DNA from: a virus
Virus record (IMG/VR): IMGVR_UViG_3300045988_000143
Span: 1 to 5,876 of that record
DNA length: 5,876 bases
Reading direction: 5' to 3' (one strand)
Position numbers and translations under genes: made by a program. How positions within the stretch are numbered: the stretch's first letter is position 1; each line of letters starts with the position of its first letter. The notes under the pieces were generated by a model. The model did no database searches. It worked only from the letters and a program-made list of their open reading frames with translations, and was not told the DNA's origin. Below, piece after piece: positions 1 through 5,876 of this stretch.

Positions 1-1005
1 GTTCCACTAAATGGGAACGCAGCTGTAAGCCTCTTCAGTAACCAAAGCTTAACCAGCAAACTAGGAACAGAAGACGAAATCTTTCTGAACAGTACCGCAA
101 CCGGGACCAACAGCGCAGAACCAAAAATCGGAAACTATCCAACATACTACAACGAAGGCCACCCGGCACTAGTAGTCGGAGCAACAACGGGCAAAGGAAC
201 AGAAAGAAGGGATGGATACTTAGGAGCAGACCTAAGCAGTATAACCGCAACAACAATCAACGACTTGAGAAAAGCCGTAGCAGTACAGCAGTACTACGAA
301 GCACTTGCAAGAGGTGGCAGCCGTTACCGTGAACAGGTAAAGGCACTGTGGAACGTGGTTATCAGTGATAAAACCGTACAGGTGCCGGAATACCTTGGCG
401 GTGGTAGATACCATGTAAACATTAACCAGATCGTGCAAACCAGCGGACAGCAGACCAACAATGACACGCCAATTGGTGAAACCGGTGCAATGTCAGTAAC
501 ACCAATCAACGAAAGCAGCTTCACAAAATCTTTCGAGGAACACGGATTCGTAATCGGAGTGTGTTGTGTACGACACAATCGCAGTTATCAGCAAGGCTTG
601 GAACGTTTCTGGAGTCGAAATGACAGACTTGACTACTATGTGCCACAGTTCGCAAACTTAGGTGAGCAGCCGGTAAAGAAAAAAGAAATCATGTTAACCG
701 GCGATGCAAGCGATGAAGAAACCTTCGGATATCAGGAAGCTTGGGCAGACTATCGTATGAAGCCTAACCGGGTGTCCGGTAAAATGCGAAGCAACGCAAC
801 CGGAACACTGGACTTCTGGCATTATGCTGACAGCTATGAAACCGTACCAACGCTGTCGCAAGAATGGATGGCAGAAGGAAAAACAGAAATCGCAAGGACG
901 TTGATAGTCCAAGATGAGCCCCAATTTTTCGGAGCAATCCGTGTAGCAAACAAAACCACAAGACGGATGCCACTGTACAGCGTGCCGGGCTTGTACAAAC
1001 TATAA
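1..1005 (+). CDS. VP1: Major capsid protein VP1, C-terminal part (334 codons plus stop); continues from 5141..5821 across the circular junction
   Basis: Frame 1 is open from base 1 to TAA 1003-1005. The translation ...TINDLRKAVAVQQYYEALARGGSRYREQVKALWNVVISDKTVQVPEYLGGG...FEEHGFVIGV... carries conserved core blocks of microvirus capsid proteins. Base 1 equals 5822, which is in frame with ATG 5141. The track ORF 265..1005 is only the TTG-truncated tail of this gene. Confidence 0.93.
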   Translation, partial: VPLNGNAAVSLFSNQSLTSKLGTEDEIFLNSTATGTNSAEPKIGNYPTYYNEGHPALVVGATTGKGTERRDGYLGADLSSITATTINDLRKAVAVQQYYEALARGGSRYREQVKALWNVVISDKTVQVPEYLGGGRYHVNINQIVQTSGQQTNNDTPIGETGAMSVTPINESSFTKSFEEHGFVIGVCCVRHNRSYQQGLERFWSRNDRLDYYVPQFANLGEQPVKKKEIMLTGDASDEETFGYQEAWADYRMKPNRVSGKMRSNATGTLDFWHYADSYETVPTLSQEWMAEGKTEIARTLIVQDEPQFFGAIRVANKTTRRMPLYSVPGLYKL

Positions 1006-1016
1006 GAAAGGAGGAA

Positions 1017-1041
1017 GCCCGGAGAAATCCGGGCAATTTTT
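1017..1041 (+). terminator. GC hairpin plus T-run directly after VP1 (candidate leaky intrinsic terminator/attenuator)
   Basis: GCCCGG (1017-1022), loop AGAAAT, CCGGGC (1029-1034), then AATTTTT (1035-1041). It lies between the VP1 stop (1005) and the VP2 ATG (1044). Confidence 0.5.
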
Positions 1042-1043
1042 AA

Positions 1044-1880
1044 ATGAGTATATTATCAGGACTGTTAACAGGACTAAACGTAGCGGGAAACGTAGCGAAT
1101 ACAGTTGGAACAATTGCCGGCGCGGCAAAAGACATTGCCGGAATATTCGGCGGATGGGGTCAAACCGGCAACAGCCAAAGTAGCGGCGGCAGTACAAGCG
1201 AAGGCGGCGGTCATTCAGAAAGTGGAAGTCACTCGGGCACAAACGTACAACAAGTAAACGACTGGCTAAAACAGGCATACGCATACCAAGGGCAAGAAGC
1301 TGCCATGCAAGGTAAATACAACAGTCAAAGCATGCTTAAACAGATGGGTTACAACACCTTACAAGCAATCATGCAAGGAGTATACAACCACATTGAAAAC
1401 AGTGTAGCAATGAACTACAACAGCGCAGAAGCACTAGCAAACCGGGAATGGCAAGAGCACATGAGCAATACAGCATATCAACGAGCCGTTGAAGATATGA
1501 AAAAAGCGGGACTTAACCCAATTTTAGCATTTGCAAACGGTGGAGCAAGCACACCGGGCGGCAGTGCAGGAACAATCAGCGGCGCAAGCATGGGACTGGC
1601 AAGCAGTAGCGCACTAGGAGTAAGTAGAAGCGGCGGCTTCGTACCGAACGCATACGAAAGCAATAGCTGGAGTAAAAGCGACTGGTACAACGCATCGCAA
1701 AGTTGGCAACAGATGCTCAGTAGTACGCAAATGACACCTTACGGATTAGCGAAGGTTTTAACAAACATCGGAAACGATACCGGAAAAGCAATAGAAAAAG
1801 CAACAAAGACAAAAAGCAAAACGCACAAGAGCAAAAGCGGAGTAGAACATGGCGGCGGTGGAGGTGATATCAAAAAGTGA
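1044..1880 (+). CDS. VP2: Minor capsid / DNA pilot protein VP2
   Basis: 278 aa. It has a hydrophobic Gly/Ala-rich N-terminus (MSILSGLLTGLNVAGNVANTVGTIAGAAKDIAGIFGG), a G/S-rich linker, and the block EWQEHMSNTAYQRAVEDMKKAGLNPILAF typical of gokushovirus VP2. It sits immediately downstream of VP1. The in-frame stop at 1041-1043 fixes ATG 1044 as the first start. Confidence 0.85.
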   Translation: MSILSGLLTGLNVAGNVANTVGTIAGAAKDIAGIFGGWGQTGNSQSSGGSTSEGGGHSESGSHSGTNVQQVNDWLKQAYAYQGQEAAMQGKYNSQSMLKQMGYNTLQAIMQGVYNHIENSVAMNYNSAEALANREWQEHMSNTAYQRAVEDMKKAGLNPILAFANGGASTPGGSAGTISGASMGLASSSALGVSRSGGFVPNAYESNSWSKSDWYNASQSWQQMLSSTQMTPYGLAKVLTNIGNDTGKAIEKATKTKSKTHKSKSGVEHGGGGGDIKK

Positions 1881-2896
1881 GTTGCTACAAGCCATTAATA
1901 AGGCTGTACAACCCTAACGACAAAGACATTAGCGGGAGGGTGTATTCACTCTCCCGCTATTCTCAGTTAGCGGGAAAACAACTAAAGTATGAAGATTTGA
2001 TGTTTAGAAAAGATGTCATGCTAATACCATGCGGACAGTGCATCGGATGCAGAATCAGACAAAGAGAGGACTGGACAACACGAATAGAATTAGAAGCACG
2101 AGACTATCCAAAAGAAGAAGTTTGGTTTATCACATTAACCTATGACGATGAACACGTGCCGGGCATGATAGTAAACACAGGCGAAATCATGCGAAAAGTA
2201 CAATACGTCTGGAAGCCGGGAGAGAAGCGCCCTGAAAGCGTCCAAACTTTGCTATATACTGACGTTCAAAAGTTCTTAAAACGCCTCAGGAAGGCTTACA
2301 GGGGCAAATTACGCTATTTTGTGGCGGGAGAATACGGAGAGCAGACAGCTAGGCCACATTTCCATATGATTCTATATGGATGGAGACCAACAGACCTAGA
2401 ACACCTATATAAGATACAACACAACGGATACTTTACAAGTAAATGGCTAGCAAACCTATGGGGCATGGGTCAAATACAGATAGCACAAGCAGTACCAGAG
2501 GCATATAGATATGTTGCGGGATACGTCACGAAAAAGATGTACGAAATTAACGGCCAGAAATCAAACGCATACTACGAACTAGGACAACAAAAACCTTTTG
2601 CATGTATGAGCCTCAAGCCGGGCTTGGGAGATCACTATTACCAAGAACACAAAGAAGAAATCTGGAAACAAGGCTACATCCAATGCACAAACGGCAAACG
2701 CGCAAAAATTCCGCGCTATTATGAAAAAATGATGGAAGCTGAAAACCCACAAAGATTGTGGAGAATTAAACAGAACAGACAAGCAGCAGCCATAGCAGAG
2801 AACCGGCTTAAATACGAAAATGCAGACTTTGCAGAGCAATGTAAGACAAAAGAAAGAGTGATAAAGAAGCAAATGAAGAAGAGGGGGACGCTTTAA
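1877..2896 (+). CDS. VP4: Replication initiation protein VP4 (HUH rolling-circle endonuclease, phiX174 A-like)
   Basis: 339 aa. Motifs seen are the Cys cluster CGQCIGCR, motif 1 FITLTYDD, the HUH motif RPHFHMILYG (HFH at 2357-2365), and YRYVAGYVTKK with two Tyr three residues apart (2510-2512, 2522-2524), as in phiX174 A. The GTG start at 1877 overlaps the VP2 stop (GTGA), with GGAGG at 1860-1864. The N-terminus MSCYKPL resembles the M-x-C-x-x-P start of other VP4 proteins. Confidence 0.9.
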   Translation: MSCYKPLIRLYNPNDKDISGRVYSLSRYSQLAGKQLKYEDLMFRKDVMLIPCGQCIGCRIRQREDWTTRIELEARDYPKEEVWFITLTYDDEHVPGMIVNTGEIMRKVQYVWKPGEKRPESVQTLLYTDVQKFLKRLRKAYRGKLRYFVAGEYGEQTARPHFHMILYGWRPTDLEHLYKIQHNGYFTSKWLANLWGMGQIQIAQAVPEAYRYVAGYVTKKMYEINGQKSNAYYELGQQKPFACMSLKPGLGDHYYQEHKEEIWKQGYIQCTNGKRAKIPRYYEKMMEAENPQRLWRIKQNRQAAAIAENRLKYENADFAEQCKTKERVIKKQMKKRGTL

Positions 2897-2907
2897 AGGT
2901 GTCACCT

Positions 2908-2943
2908 AGCCAAGTACCTATCAAGTAAGGTACTTGGCTTTTG
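2908..2943 (+). terminator. Rho-independent terminator after VP4
   Basis: Perfect 12-bp stem AGCCAAGTACCT (2908-2919) / AGGTACTTGGCT (2928-2939) with an 8-nt loop ATCAAGTA. It runs into TTTT (2939-2942), 12 nt after the VP4 stop. Confidence 0.7.
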
Positions 2944-2980
2944 TCGTCTAAAGACTCCATGTATCAGACTATTCAGTCTA

Positions 2981-2998
2981 TCAAATAATCAAATAATC
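2981..2998. repeat. Tandem 8-mer TCAAATAA x2 (plus partial TC)
   Basis: TCAAATAA at 2981-2988 and 2989-2996, read directly from the sequence. Confidence 0.8.
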
Positions 2999-3003
2999 TA
3001 ATT

Positions 3004-3050
3004 CGCACGTGCGCACACGCGCGATAGCGCGCACGCGCGCACGCGCGATA
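3004..3050. repeat. Two 20-nt perfectly alternating pyrimidine-purine GC-rich blocks, each ending CACGCGCGATA (imperfect 24-nt tandem repeat)
   Basis: 3004-3023 CGCACGTGCGCACACGCGCG and 3028-3047 CGCGCACGCGCGCACGCGCG alternate Y-R without interruption. They are separated by ATAG and followed by ATATAATATTAAC. The two 23-nt units match at 19/23 positions. CACGCGCGATA is exact at 3016-3026 and 3040-3050. Confidence 0.9.
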
Positions 3051-3094
3051 TAATATTAACTTGTTGTAGGAGTAGTAGTAGAGGTAGTGGAAAA

Positions 3095-3261
3095 GTTGAA
3101 AAGTACTAAAATTTAACGCTAAAGCGTAAATAAAAAGAAAAAAACACTGTTGAAAGTTTTGTTGAAAACTTGTTGAATTGTTGAAAGTTCGTCAAAATGA
3201 CTAAAATCGTTGTGCAACATTTTGTGGAAAACCTGTTGAAAGTGTTGAAAGTGTTGAAAAC
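3095..3261 (+). repeat. Iteron-like array: 8 exact same-orientation GTTGAA(A) copies plus degenerate copies
   Basis: GTTGAA starts at 3095, 3149, 3161, 3172, 3180, 3235, 3244 and 3253. Positions 3234-3260 form three head-to-tail 9-mers TGTTGAAA(G/A). Degenerate copies are GTCAAAA at 3191 and GTGGAAAAC at 3224. Confidence 0.85.
3117..3126. repeat. CGCTAAAGCG mini-palindrome, copy 1 (upstream flank of the main iteron clusters)
   Basis: The exact 10-mer is repeated at 3322-3331. ACGCT/AGCGT are self-complementary arms. Confidence 0.7.
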
Positions 3262-3321
3262 GCGCACAGCGCTAACAATGAAAGAATTAGCCGAGCTCCG
3301 CGTGCGCTCCGCACGGCAGAG

Positions 3322-3331
3322 CGCTAAAGCG
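3322..3331. repeat. CGCTAAAGCG mini-palindrome, copy 2 (downstream flank of the iteron array)
   Basis: Embedded in AGCGCTAAAGCGCT (3320-3333). It is identical to the 10-mer at 3117-3126. Confidence 0.7.
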
Positions 3332-3357
3332 CTTTCAAAACAAAGGAGCAAAACCAG

Positions 3358-3388
3358 GTTACAAGAGAAAGTTACAAATATATTACAA
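3358..3388 (+). promoter_or_regulatory. Three direct (G/A)TTACAA repeats upstream of the promoter (possible operator or UP-like element)
   Basis: GTTACAA at 3358-3364, GTTACAA at 3371-3377 and ATTACAA at 3382-3388, with 13- and 11-nt spacing. They end 14 nt upstream of the -35 hexamer. Confidence 0.4.
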
Positions 3389-3401
3389 AACAGCAAAATC
3401 A

Positions 3402-3430
3402 TTGAAATCCCTATTGACATATGATATAAT
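3402..3430 (+). promoter_or_regulatory. Near-consensus sigma70-type promoter with extended -10
   Basis: TTGAAA (3402-3407), a 17-nt spacer, then TGaTATAAT (TG at 3422-3423, TATAAT at 3425-3430). It lies about 29 nt upstream of ATG 3459, at the 3' end of the long non-coding region. Confidence 0.75.
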
Positions 3431-3458
3431 GAAATCAGAAAAAAAGGGGGCAATTAAA

Positions 3459-3650
3459 ATGAAACACAACTACGAACTTAGAGAATTAAACAGCGATGCA
3501 ACCACAACAATCGTGCTAAGAATGACAGAAGAGCCAAGGGACGCGAAAAAGCGTGCAAAGGCATATGCAAAAGAAAACCCGGGATTGTATTCACTAAAAA
3601 GAATCGAAACGGTTGAGGTATACTTCACGGAGGTTGACGAAAATGCTTAA
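3459..3650 (+). CDS. Hypothetical protein, 63 aa (first gene after the promoter)
   Basis: ATG 3459 is preceded by AAGGGGG (3444-3450, 8-nt spacing). The track ORF 3402..3650 starts at a TTG that is actually the -35 hexamer. I recognise no family for MKHNYELRELNSDATTTIVLRMTEEPRDAKKRAKAYAKENPGLYSLKRIETVEVYFTEVDENA. Confidence 0.6.
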   Translation: MKHNYELRELNSDATTTIVLRMTEEPRDAKKRAKAYAKENPGLYSLKRIETVEVYFTEVDENA

Positions 3651-4035
3651 AAGCTATATACTGAACACAGATGGAAATGTACAACTTGCAAGACACTTCA
3701 AAGTAAAAGAATTTGCTTGCAAAGACGGCAGTCCGGTAGTATTCATAGACGACTACTTATACACCGTTCTAGACATCCTCCGACATAAACTAGGAAAGCC
3801 GGTGATCATCACCAGCGGATACAGAACACCAGAGTGGAACAAAAAATGCAACGGAGCAAAATACAGCTACCACATGCGCGGTATGGCAGCAGATATCCGA
3901 GTCGATGGCATGAGTGCAAAAGAAGTTGCCAACAAACTAAATGAAATCATACCGGATGAATGCGGCATTATCGTATATAACAGTTGGGTGCATTTTGATG
4001 TGCGAACCGGGAAAAAATACAGAAAGGGGGTATAA
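3643..4035 (+). CDS. Zinc D-Ala-D-Ala-carboxypeptidase-like peptidase, M15 family (candidate endolysin), 130 aa
   Basis: ATG 3643 has GGAGG at 3629-3633 (9-nt spacing). Family hallmarks are FKVKEFACKDG, ITSGYRTPEWN and SYHMRGMAADI (an H-x6-D zinc ligand pair, H77/D84), with the third ligand in WVHFDV (H117). I see no signal peptide or TM segment. Confidence 0.8.
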   Translation: MLKSYILNTDGNVQLARHFKVKEFACKDGSPVVFIDDYLYTVLDILRHKLGKPVIITSGYRTPEWNKKCNGAKYSYHMRGMAADIRVDGMSAKEVANKLNEIIPDECGIIVYNSWVHFDVRTGKKYRKGV

Positions 4036-4036
4036 A

Positions 4037-4159
4037 ATGGCACTGATTTCCATTAAAGACGTCAAACAGGCAATCCACATTATGATGGAAATCCTCGAAA
4101 AGCTCGATGAGATCTATCATGCACTGCACGACGAAATCGTCGAAAACGAAAAGGAGTAA
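4037..4159 (+). CDS. Hypothetical small acidic helical protein, 40 aa
   Basis: ATG 4037 has AAGGGGG at 4024-4030 (6-nt spacing), 1 nt after the peptidase stop. Sequence: MALISIKDVKQAIHIMMEILEKLDEIYHALHDEIVENEKE. The longer track ORF from ATG 3941 has no SD and lies inside the peptidase gene. Confidence 0.5.
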   Translation: MALISIKDVKQAIHIMMEILEKLDEIYHALHDEIVENEKE

Positions 4160-4163
4160 GCAA

Positions 4164-4391
4164 ATGACAAGAACAACATGGAATGCAAGAGACACCCCCA
4201 CAGACGCACTAGAAGAACTGCTCGCACGAAAATACAAAGAAATTGAAGGCAATTACAAAATGCTACGCAAAGTCGGAAAAAAAGAAGACGCAATAAAGTT
4301 AATTGAAGAAATTTGGCAAATAAAAAGCTTTGCAAACAGCATTGAAGTAGAGCTGATGAGAAGGGAGTACAACAATGGCACGACATCGTAA
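4164..4391 (+). CDS. Hypothetical protein, 75 aa
   Basis: ATG 4164 has AAGGAG at 4151-4156 (7-nt spacing). Sequence: MTRTTWNARDTPTDALEELLARKYKEIEGNYKMLRKVGKKEDAIKLIEEIWQIKSFANSIEVELMRREYNNGTTS. I recognise no family. Confidence 0.6.
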   Translation: MTRTTWNARDTPTDALEELLARKYKEIEGNYKMLRKVGKKEDAIKLIEEIWQIKSFANSIEVELMRREYNNGTTS

Positions 4392-4497
4392 ACTCATGAG
4401 CGGCGCAAAAGACCGCCGTATGTTTAACGTAACAGCAAGAAAAACGAAAAGCATTAACCTTAGCCAGAAGCCCATGCGCGGCGGCATCCGGCTGTAA
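4375..4497 (+). CDS. Small arginine/lysine-rich DNA-binding (packaging) protein, phiX174 J / gokushovirus ORF8-like, 40 aa
   Basis: Not in the supplied ORF track; found by reading. ATG 4375 has AAGGGAG at 4361-4367 (7-nt spacing). Translation: MARHRKLMSGAKDRRMFNVTARKTKSINLSQKPMRGGIRL. The basic N-terminus, the R-x-F-x-x-TA core and the C-terminal MRGGIRL match my recollection of the small basic proteins of gokushovirus-like genomes. Confidence 0.7.
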   Translation: MARHRKLMSGAKDRRMFNVTARKTKSINLSQKPMRGGIRL

Positions 4498-4513
4498 AAG
4501 AAAGGAAAAGACA

Positions 4514-4753
4514 ATGGAACATCTGTATTATGGCCTGTGGGATAGCGTGGCAAAGTGCTACGCATGGGTAGGCGAGAGCAAGAACAATGCAACCTTCGCA
4601 CGTATGTGCAACGTAATGGCAAAGGATGAAAAAACCTTTGTAGGACAGGCGCCGGAAGATTATACCGGCTATAAGTTAGCAAAATTCAACGATGAAAGCG
4701 GCGAATTTGTCAACGACAAGGAGAAAGTTTGGGAGGGCAAGCCGCATGAATAA
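4514..4753 (+). CDS. VP5: VP5-like non-structural protein (ORF5 family), 79 aa
   Basis: ATG 4514 has AAGGA at 4502-4506. YYGLWDSVAKCYAWVGESKNNATFARMCNVM...APEDYTGYKLAKFNDESGEF follows the pattern of gokushovirus VP5 (aromatic-D-x-K-A...A-x-R-x-F...PEDY/F...G-x-F-D-D-x-x-G). It sits directly upstream of VP3. Confidence 0.6.
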   Translation: MEHLYYGLWDSVAKCYAWVGESKNNATFARMCNVMAKDEKTFVGQAPEDYTGYKLAKFNDESGEFVNDKEKVWEGKPHE

Positions 4754-5144
4754 ACGATACGAAGAAGGGCGAAAGCCCTTCTTTTCCAAATCAGGCGAAA
4801 AATTCCAAAAACAATACGTCTGGACAAAGGACGAAAAAGGGCAAGAAGTACTGAAAGAAACTGCGCCAATCGACATCCAACAGGAAATTGAAAGCTATTC
4901 GGACGAATGTGATATCAAAAACATCGTCCGAAAAGCAAGTTTTGACCCGCAGTTTCTGAAAAGCCTGTCAGAAGGAGCATTAAACGATACGTACACAGAT
5001 ATTACGGAATTCCCGCAAAACATCCATGAGTATCACCGCATGGTGGCGACCGCGCAAGCAAACGTCATGAAGCTTGAAGAACTGCAAAAAAAGGCGGCAG
5101 AAGAGCCTAAAGAAGAATCTAAAGCAAAGGATGGCGAAGAATGA
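4746..5144 (+). CDS. VP3: Internal scaffolding protein VP3, 132 aa
   Basis: ATG 4746 has GGGAGGG at 4731-4737 (8-nt spacing) and overlaps the VP5 stop (ATGAATAA). SYSDECDIKNIVRKASFDP...YTDITEFPQNIHEYHRMVATAQANVMKLEE resembles VP3 of Chlamydia-type microviruses, and the tail is acidic. The stop overlaps the VP1 ATG. The upstream ATG 4692 has no SD. Confidence 0.7.
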   Translation: MNKRYEEGRKPFFSKSGEKFQKQYVWTKDEKGQEVLKETAPIDIQQEIESYSDECDIKNIVRKASFDPQFLKSLSEGALNDTYTDITEFPQNIHEYHRMVATAQANVMKLEELQKKAAEEPKEESKAKDGEE

Positions 5145-5876
5145 ATCGAAACAATGAACGGCACTTCAATCAAATTCCAGAAATGAGAGCGAGCCGAACG
5201 CGATTCAACCGTGACCAGACGATTTTAACAACGTTCGACTCTGGCAAGCTGATTCCATTTTACGTTGACGAGGTATTACCGGGCGATACTTTCAACGTGG
5301 ATACATCGGCTATCATCCGCATGACCACACCGAAGTACCCGGTAATGGACGATGCATTTATCGACTTCTACTATTTCTACTGTCCCAACAGAATTTTGTG
5401 GGACAACTTCAAACAATTCATGGGAGAAGTAGAAGAAACACCATGGATGCCAAAAAAAGAGTATAGTGTACCACAAATCGAAATCCAAGGGTCAACAAAT
5501 GACCCTAAACCATATGAAGGCTCAATACTGGACTACATGGGAATCCCAACGAAAGTTAAAATGGTTTTCAAAGTAAATGCACTACCAATCAGAGCATACA
5601 CAATGATTTGGAACGAATTTTTTAGGGACGAAAATGTAGACAATGCGGCAGTCTTCAGTAGCAAAGACGAAAATAGGGTATACACAGACAGCAAAAAAGA
5701 AGAACAAATAGAAGAAAATCTAAAGAATGCAATAAGCGGCGGAAGATGCTTACCAGTCAACAAATTCCACGACTACTTCACGTCCTGTCTTCCTTATCCT
5801 CAGCGCGGGCCAGCAGTAACAGTTCCACTAAATGGGAACGCAGCTGTAAGCCTCTTCAGTAACCAAAGCTTAACCA
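5141..5876 (+). CDS. VP1: Major capsid protein VP1, N-terminal part (open to the window end; continues at base 56 of the window after the 55-nt duplicated overlap)
   Basis: ATG 5141 forms an ATGA overlap with the VP3 stop, with AAGGA at 5127-5131. I read no stop through 5876. MNRNNERHFNQIPEMRASRTRFNRDQTILTTFDSGKLIPFYVDEVLPGDTF...ILDYMGIP...ALPIRAYTMIWNEFFRDENV...HDYFTSCLPYPQRG are hallmark microvirus capsid blocks. It is missing from the track because it has no stop inside the window. Confidence 0.93.
   Translation, partial: MNRNNERHFNQIPEMRASRTRFNRDQTILTTFDSGKLIPFYVDEVLPGDTFNVDTSAIIRMTTPKYPVMDDAFIDFYYFYCPNRILWDNFKQFMGEVEETPWMPKKEYSVPQIEIQGSTNDPKPYEGSILDYMGIPTKVKMVFKVNALPIRAYTMIWNEFFRDENVDNAAVFSSKDENRVYTDSKKEEQIEENLKNAISGGRCLPVNKFHDYFTSCLPYPQRGPAVTVPLNGNAAVSLFSNQSLT
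5822..5876. repeat. 55-nt terminal overlap identical to 1-55 (circular-contig signature)
   Basis: Base-by-base identity of 5822-5876 with 1-55. The VP1 reading frame is continuous across the junction. Confidence 0.95.

Follow-up and report, generated by a model that had tools for sequence, protein, structure and literature searches.

An oriC-like module with predicted DnaA boxes in the non-coding region of gut gokushoviruses

The window analyzed here is the whole 5,876-nt stretch (positions 1 to 5,876) of the IMG/VR virus record IMGVR_UViG_3300045988_000143, which holds a circular gokushovirus genome, complete at 5,821 nt, whose termini overlap by 55 nt. Microviridae are textbook rolling-circle phages with single-stranded DNA (ssDNA), replicated by their own HUH Rep, which is VP4 in the window. 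In the 560-nt non-coding region directly after the VP4 gene, we identified a conserved 210-nt module (3049-3261) that probably mimics, or was captured from, a Firmicute chromosomal origin in compact, self-contained form and carries predicted boxes for the host DnaA. The flavour of these boxes suggests Oscillospiraceae/Ruminococcus as the likely host group. An array of GTTGAA repeats, for which this region had originally been singled out, is one part of the module and is joined there by an in-phase run of TAG triplets and an AT-rich end. The original prediction regarded such an array as undescribed in Microviridae, and our literature search agrees: it returned no paper on one, none that connects DnaA boxes to Microviridae or gokushoviruses, and none that relates DnaA-trios or oriC-like elements to phages (full-text literature; subscription journals not covered).

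The closest known counterpart is the basal unwinding system (BUS) of bacterial oriC, reportedly set out by Richardson in 2016 and 2019 for the incC region of Bacillus subtilis. Read on the minus strand from 3260 to 3049, the module consists of distal box clusters, a proximal box pair, a 4-nt spacer, DnaA-trios and the AT-rich end. It has 10-11 boxes in all, every one in the same orientation and leading to five DnaA-trios. Its parts are as follows (groups i to iii are virus lineages described below):

3049..3261, minus strand: whole oriC-like module ("cassette"); its boundaries are where similarity starts and stops between lineages that differ in its place and orientation
3048..3060: AT-rich end ATATAATATTAAC, candidate DNA-unwinding element (DUE) beside the trios, in the place of the DUE in the B. 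subtilis/Clostridium BUS
3061..3081, plus strand: DnaA-trio run TTG TTG TAG GAG TAG TAG TAG (3'->5': GAT GAT GAT GAG GAT GTT GTT)
3082..3085: 4-nt spacer from the proximal box to the first trio, AGGT (ACCT on the box strand)
3086..3102, minus strand: proximal DnaA-box pair TTTTCCACT (3086-3094) and TTTTCAACT (3094-3102), 8 nt start-to-start
3148..3187, minus strand: middle cluster of four boxes at 3148 (CTTTCAACA), 3160 (TTTTCAACA), 3171 (AATTCAACA) and 3179 (CTTTCAACA), spacing 12/11/8
3187..3201: conserved block GTTCGTCAAAATGAC with a GTCA-N3-TGAC palindrome, conserved in groups i and ii
3211..3219, minus strand: degenerate box TGTTGCACA, which differs from TTWTNCACA at one position; groups i and ii conserve it, group iii does not
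3223..3260, minus strand: distal cluster of four boxes at 3223 (TTTTCCACA), 3234 and 3243 (both CTTTCAACA) and 3252 (TTTTCAACA), spacing 11/9/9

The repeats described by the original prediction are non-coding and far above chance. All eight plus-strand GTTGAA copies are present (3095, 3149, 3161, 3172, 3180, 3235, 3244 and 3253), the distances of 54 and 55 nt between clusters are right as given, and the three head-to-tail 9-mers at 3234-3259 were recovered by Tandem Repeats Finder. The statement that the hexamer occurs only once elsewhere, at 1488, holds for the plus strand but not for the genome, which has three more copies on the minus strand; the resulting total of 12 compares with 3.6 expected, and none of 200 shuffles reached 12. 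Two degenerate copies had also been named. The one at 3224 (GTGGAA) is homologous, relatives having GTTGAA there, whereas the one at 3191 belongs to a separate conserved block, GTTCGTCAnnnTGAC. A GTGGAA at 3087 and the degenerate copy at 3211-3219 had been missed, and the array totals 9-11 copies with GTGGAA variants included. What repeats is in fact a 9-mer, TGTKGAAAR, which reads YTTTCMACA on the opposite strand; it is present in 6-11 copies per cassette with a mode of 9-10 among the 187 distinct full-length module copies found in microvirus contigs. Searching for TTWTCMACA with ≤1 mismatch placed 9 of the 10 genome-wide minus-strand matches inside 3086-3260, and the biggest same-strand cluster held 9 matches, compared with 3 in 200 dinucleotide shuffles. 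Because TTWTCMACA was partly derived from the data, the literature consensus TTWTNCACA served as a control. With ≤1 mismatch, 5 of its 10 minus-strand matches fell in the module, which makes up 3.7% of the genome, and one of them, the distal box TTTTCCACA at 3223, is exact. The original view of the repeats as resembling the binding platform of a replication initiator stands; the specific roles it offered (VP4 binding, a minus-strand origin, a -35 element, Spo0A sensing) are not supported, as discussed below.

The DnaA-box consensus is TTATCCACA, with the relaxed form TTWTNCACA, and in the Firmicute origins compared an AT-rich unwinding element lies beyond the trios. A published BUS has a box with ≤2 mismatches, an adjacent second box with ≤4 mismatches 0-3 bp away, a spacer of 0-16 nt that usually takes the form of a GC cluster of 4 nt (B. 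subtilis, CCGG; C. acetobutylicum, GAGG; C. botulinum, TCGG), and ≥3 trios (.A.) with the consensus 3'-GAT-5' (Pelliciari 2021, PMC8287927). The A6 variants TTTTCAACA and TTATCAACA are among the DoriC species-specific boxes or predicted BUS boxes of Clostridium, Porphyromonas and others (PMC8287927). Written 3'->5', the known and the phage sequences compare as follows:

B. subtilis BUS: box AATAGGTGT, box TTAGGTGT, spacer CCGG, trios GATGATAATGAAGATGAT, AT-rich AAAAAATAT
C. acetobutylicum BUS: box AATAGTTGT, box TTAGGTGT, spacer GAGG, trios GATGATGATAATGATGAA
Window, 3102->3049: box AAAAGTTGA, box AAAGGTGA, spacer TGGA, trios GATGATGATGAGGAT GTTGTT, AT-rich CAATTATAATAT
KT264798: box AAAAGTTG, box AAAAGGTGT, spacer CGGG, trios GATGATGATGATGAT

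The window agrees with the published BUS in element order, orientation, 9+8 box pair, 4-nt spacer and trios, and the 9+8 nt layout of its proximal pair is that of B. subtilis boxes #6/#7 and of the Clostridium BUS. The first box of the pair, TTTTCCACT, has 2 mismatches to the consensus and the second, TTTTCAACT, has 3; TTTTCCACA at 3223-3231 has 1, and several module boxes differ from the DoriC species-specific TTTTCAACA by 0-1. The spacer measures 4 nt in the window and 0 nt in group ii, and the trios GAT GAT GAT GAG GAT run 3081->3067. Boxes in the sense 5'-TTATCCACA-3' lead toward 5'-CTA-3' trios on the same strand, as they do in B. subtilis, in Clostridium and in at least 120 bacterial matches. 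Beyond the trios lies ATATAATATTAAC (+TTGTTG), conserved and only 13-19 nt long, with a GC-rich tract next to it in the window. KT264798 (group iii) reads (TAG)5-GGGC-TGTGGAAAA-GTTGAAAAC; the spacer of this lineage, GCCC on the box strand, is identical to that of Oscillospiraceae origins. The (TAG)3 of the trio run is the only one in the window genome and abuts the boxes, and any (TAG)3 occurred in only 7 of 500 shuffles. At least three in-phase NAG triplets are kept in 183 of the 187 cassettes. The place differs from that of a chromosomal oriC, which usually adjoins dnaA or dnaN: a 5.8-kb phage genome, between VP4 and small open reading frames (ORFs).

We searched GTDB species genomes with the pattern TTWTCAACNWWTCMACNNNNNYTAYTAYTA, designed to fit the window as well as the C. 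acetobutylicum BUS from the literature. It matched at least 120 sites, compared with about 0.5 expected from an information-content estimate. Among the matches listed, nearly all bacterial sites were in Firmicutes, and of the 92 sites preceded by 1.5 kb or more of sequence, 67 had the DnaA signature DH[TS]TV upstream on the same strand. The T-rich box flavour of the phage occurred in 15 of 120 listed bacterial origins, nine of them from Oscillospiraceae/Ruminococcus/Ruthenibacterium/Faeciplasma and four from Selenomonas, and the four listed origins with 6-7 exact upstream TTTCAAC copies were all from Oscillospiraceae. An nhmmer search with a profile of the phage module gave its best match in an Oscillospiraceae metagenome-assembled genome (E = 3.8e-9), spanning profile positions 12-199 and thus reaching well past the searched pattern; Ruminococcus, other Oscillospiraceae, Ruthenibacterium and Ca. 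Faeciplasma followed. The matched locus (5888-6094) lies between genes with Bac_DnaA plus Bac_DnaA_C and with DNA_pol3_beta domains, which identifies it as a chromosomal origin, and it carries repeated same-orientation TTTCAAC boxes with TTTTCAACATTTCAACAGCCCCTACTACTA at its end. Over the box-box-spacer-trio stretch, the phage module and the dnaA-dnaN origin of gut Oscillospiraceae and Ruminococcus are nearly identical. The exact module core had no match in 185,579 bacterial and archaeal genomes, which argues for a mimic or an old capture and not for contamination or recent transfer, and means that the module was not captured recently and is no prophage among the genomes sampled. Since the module lies on a phage genome and its core is not matched exactly in these genomes, we call it oriC-like and not an oriC.

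Among GenBank phages and IMG/VR contigs, BLAST showed the non-coding region to be widely conserved in human, pig and monkey gut gokushoviruses, with the array itself as the core that distant relatives conserve. GenBank records with the module annotate nothing there or a 'hypothetical protein'. Close relatives carry the array, whose absence from them had been named as one outcome that would speak against it. In six of these (VP4 91-95% identical), 3049-3261 is reverse-complemented between collinear flanks. A scan for the module core found it in 100 microvirus contigs of separate Rep lineages:

Group i: VP4 83-96% identical to the window; module downstream of VP4, mostly in window orientation, some inverted
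Group ii: VP4 36-41% identical to the window; module between VP2 and VP4, inverted
Group iii (KT264798, MG945391, MT135268): VP4 45-48% identical to the window; module downstream of VP4, in window orientation

When group ii genomes were collected independently through VP4, all 45 with sufficient flanking sequence proved to carry the module; it lies upstream of VP4 and is inverted in 44 of them, and in the remaining one it is downstream in window orientation. The VP1, VP2 and VP4 proteins of groups i and ii are only ~37-48% identical, whereas the DNA of the module, of a GC-rich block (3262-3344 and beyond) and of the M15 peptidase gene is 75-89% identical; because these three are so much more similar, the genomes are mosaics with a common accessory set. 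The M15 (lysis) gene alone, window 3629-4035 compared with 4620-5025 of the group ii genome L083, is ~86% identical in DNA against ~40% for capsid and Rep, which shows recent exchange of an accessory module between distinct gokushovirus backbones. In the viral collection the box-box-spacer-trio pattern is almost confined to microviruses, which account for 114 of the 119 matches listed. The other five (L363, L366, L383, L385 and L409; IMG/VR, 12-82 kb) showed neither a VP4 relative nor a DnaA signature in the stretches examined; these contigs may stem from further phages that have BUS-like modules, or from bacterial DNA that was misbinned.

The lineages also separate what selection has held from what has drifted. 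Between-lineage consensus identity was 0.90-0.95 for the trios, the most conserved part of the module, 0.76-0.97 for the boxes and 0.75-0.92 for the AT-rich end, as against 0.42-0.64 for the spacers. The 12/11/8 spacing of the middle cluster is kept in every lineage, and the distal cluster varies between 3 and 4 copies among relatives through gain or loss of a 9-mer. The spacers are A-rich on whichever strand is coding: on the module top strand their A/T skew is +0.25 and +0.17 in window orientation and -0.37 and -0.52 when inverted. Because the skew flips with orientation, the inversions are old and the spacers drift under the strand bias of the genome. Motifs held whatever the strand in turn argue for a function in duplex DNA, independent of the orientation of genes or of the packaged strand. 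Such independence of orientation and position fits an autonomous duplex-DNA origin module. An active inverton or phase-variable switch was considered and rejected: inverted copies are 75-79% identical to the window module and their spacer composition has re-equilibrated, as in old fixed rearrangements.

The same box identification would also serve a DnaA sink or sensor, in which the array titrates host DnaA and so blocks host initiation, or couples phage expression to DnaA-ATP, and no origin fires. With some ten boxes in each genome and many copies of the replicative form, the sink would be strong, and the AT-rich end is weaker than bacterial DUEs. For titration, boxes alone suffice, yet the trios, box-to-trio orientation, spacer geometry and AT-rich end are highly conserved, and in the published model trios, spacer and AT-rich end serve unwinding only. 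Because these elements are as conserved as the boxes and titration needs none of them, we favour a real unwinding function and consider a pure sink or sensor unlikely.

An auxiliary platform of VP4-specific iterons, positioning the rolling-circle initiator of the phage, was proposed by the original prediction. Direct repeats in the non-coding region adjoining the rep gene in every lineage are what this idea expects. The modules, however, are ~75% identical with core motifs and spacing kept, and they would have to serve VP4s only 37-48% identical; their position and orientation relative to VP4 vary; and their sequence resembles bacterial dnaA-dnaN origins. The array neither co-varies with its cognate Rep nor holds a fixed place or orientation beside a nick site, so that VP4 iterons are very unlikely. 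A phiX174-like nick site was considered at 3058-3063, where AACTTG resembles the phiX origin CAACTTG^A. The resemblance spans 6 nt only, and a strand-specific nick is hard to square with inversions at a coding-strand-tied A/T skew; it was dropped as evidence. A XerCD/dif-like site near 3044-3064 was considered as well, but the resemblance is weak.

Another host regulator (Spo0A or a response regulator of the OmpR/PhoP type) or a cluster of -35-like elements is scarcely probable. TGTTGAA is one mismatch from the 0A box of Spo0A, an exact TGACGAA (3188-3194, minus strand) is conserved in groups i and ii, and TTGAAA resembles a -35 element. Across 1,708 motif copies, however, the variable position is T in 1,496, G in 201, A in 11 and C, the critical base at position 4 of the 0A box TGNCGAA of phi29-type arrays, in none, and the exact 0A-like box is missing from the KT264798/MG945391 lineage. 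Inside the array the promoter scan called no promoter and found no -10 partner for TTGAAA, the strong promoter lying outside it at 3402-3430. Both ideas leave the adjacent trios unexplained and face an orientation that flips relative to all genes; neither role suggested earlier for the hexamer is supported. TTCGTCA at 3188-3194, inside the palindrome of the block at 3187-3201, nevertheless matches the Spo0A 0A-box consensus TGNCGAA exactly on the minus strand. The central N3 of this block flips from A to T with orientation, and the block is not present in the KT264798/MG945391 lineage. B. subtilis Spo0A binds within oriC, and 3188-3194 could be a genuine, if putative, regulatory site.

Complementary-strand origins are required by ssDNA phages, and the module might be one acting in the packaged strand: a single-strand origin (sso), a fold of G4 or M13 type, or a DnaA-box hairpin of the 'ABC primosome' kind. 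We regard this as highly improbable. The module is found in either orientation with respect to the coding strand, its boxes are direct repeats that cannot pair mutually, and its ssDNA fold was no better than that of shuffles (z = -0.73), which counts against the folded, RNA polymerase-recognised minus-strand origin of the original prediction. Group ii has an extra box in opposite orientation (TGTGGAAAAC ... GTTTTCAAC) at the distal end of the module (L083 3165-3190; L174 ~1705-1725). It could form a small hairpin holding a duplex DnaA box, but the hairpin is weak (-5.6 kcal/mol, z = -1.4) and not in the window, and the 'ABC-primosome' candidate was rejected accordingly. The chance that the array is merely a coding repeat, in ORF 3197-3424 (LLKVLKVLK) or on the opposite strand, is close to negligible, for although the 9-nt tandem unit is in frame with this 75-aa ORF, close relatives differ in frame past 3261, the ORF crosses the edge of the module and has its two halves separated by VP4 in group ii, and opposite-strand ORFs vary in length and stop position between lineages. 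ORF 3197-3424 matches no Pfam family and, as originally supposed, is not a gene; an Rfam scan of the whole window at E <= 1 returned no match.

With an origin-like module as the preferred reading, a mechanism can be proposed by analogy with the published BUS model. On the duplex replicative form, host DnaA would occupy the boxes; starting at the proximal box pair, ATP-DnaA would then oligomerise along the trio strand and melt the AT-rich end. We infer these binding and melting steps, and what follows them is more speculative. Loading of the host helicase might make the replicative form replicate, or persist, in a DnaA-dependent way (theta-type and under host control), or local melting might aid the rolling-circle initiation of the phage by VP4. 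Several points weigh against an origin-like module. The whole case is built from sequence. At position 6 most boxes have A instead of the C of the classical consensus, and the box motif TTWTCMACA was itself partly data-derived. The spacer is GC-rich in some lineages only (ACCT in the window, 0 nt in group ii), and the AT-rich end, 13-19 nt long (the longer figure with TTGTTG), is short for a bacterial DUE and adjoins a GC-rich tract in the window. Microviruses already encode a rolling-circle initiator and do not obviously need a second, DnaA-dependent mode. The taxon counts, and with them the host inference, rest on the matches listed from bacterial and viral collections. As a tentative extension that we hold to be possible but doubtful, integrase-less gut gokushoviruses might keep their replicative form through the pirated origin as a DnaA-dependent, cell-cycle-coupled mini-chromosome, a plasmid-like carrier state beside rolling-circle virion production, and the box flavour might read out the host (Oscillospiraceae/Ruminococcus) of these uncultured viruses.

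The genome around the module is arranged as follows:

VP1: runs across both window ends
1044-1880: VP2
1877-2896: VP4 (Rep protein)
2908-2939: clean terminator after VP4
3402-3430: promoter with a near-consensus extended -10, TTGAAA-17-TGATATAAT (TTGAAA-17-TGnTATAAT), 11/12 matches, upstream of a 63-aa ORF and the M15 gene
Beyond the non-coding region: small ORFs, then M15 peptidase (3643-4035), an ORF5-family protein and the VP3 scaffold

The GTTGAA array is located between the VP4 terminator and the 3402-3430 promoter. Strong Shine-Dalgarno sites downstream of this promoter are consistent with a Firmicute host. Outside the module, a nearly perfect alternating pyrimidine-purine CG/CA tract at 3003-3048 (CGCACGTGCGCACACGCGCG...GCGCGCACGCGCGCACGCGCG) forms an imperfect palindrome and is prone to Z-DNA or cruciform formation; its ssDNA fold was no better than that of shuffles. 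In group i the inverted segment is bounded on its left by this tract, and in group ii the tract is missing beside the module. At the right boundary (3260-3267) there is a short motif related to it (ACGCGCAC), and MG945391 has a perfect (CG)n hairpin in the place of the tract. The tract may have mediated the module inversions. The GC-rich block at 3262-3344, extending to ~3448 (GCGCACAGCGCTAA...AGCGCTAAAGCGC), is 85-89% identical across lineages whose VP4s are ~38% identical. Throughout groups i and ii it keeps a direct orientation and a place downstream of VP4, including in genomes where the module has moved. It is non-coding, with frameshifts among relatives, and its ssDNA fold was not significant against shuffles (z = -0.96). 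We consider it a candidate VP4 (Rep) origin or transcript leader; the own origin of VP4 more likely lies elsewhere than in the module. Group ii also has a GC hairpin (CCGGCACAAG...CTTGTGCCGG) between the module and the VP4 start (L083 3395-3445), whose loop carries the sole Shine-Dalgarno-like sequence there, AAGGAAG, suggesting possible translational control of Rep.

If this reading is right, a large group of gokushoviruses abundant in human and animal guts would also use the chromosomal initiation machinery of the host, which would give a concrete mechanism for persistence or host takeover. Matching the BUS and box flavour of phages to bacterial origins could allow sequence-based host prediction for uncultured microviruses. 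As a natural 210-bp "minimal origin" pared by selection, the module would bear on which oriC features suffice for DnaA-driven unwinding in Clostridia, and, together with the adjoining GC-rich block and the M15 lysis gene, it moves between very different microvirus backbones and marks module exchange. The DnaA/BUS origin itself is already known; what appears to be new, judged from sequence, is a chromosomal module of this type as a compact movable element on rolling-circle ssDNA phages.

Comparison with known systems places the module closest to the BUS of bacterial oriC. It shares with the BUS the element order and orientation, the 9+8 pair, the 4-nt spacer and at least five 3'-GAT-5' trios, with AT-rich DNA next to them as a candidate unwinding element, and it has extra upstream boxes, as B. 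subtilis incC does. In contrast to oriC, it is carried by a 5.8-kb ssDNA rolling-circle phage with no dnaA/dnaN nearby, is a unit of only ~210 bp with a short AT-rich end, varies in genome position and orientation, and has mostly boxes of the A6 variant TTTTCAACA. Theta origins of plasmids and phages (P1 oriR, F, pSC101, RK2) likewise let a mobile replicon recruit host DnaA through DnaA boxes, which there number 1-5 and help an iteron-binding Rep encoded by the element itself; we know of no trio-type BUS reported for them. In the phage module the boxes themselves are the 'iterons', in an arrangement that copies a chromosomal unwinding module. Geminivirus and circovirus iterons and the pMV158 bind locus are also short direct repeats near an HUH-Rep gene, but rolling-circle iterons co-vary with Rep and are fixed beside the nick-site hairpin, and the phage array does neither. 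Titration clusters such as datA are equally dense groups of DnaA boxes outside oriC, yet they are without trios, spacer and DUE, all three of which the phage module conserves.

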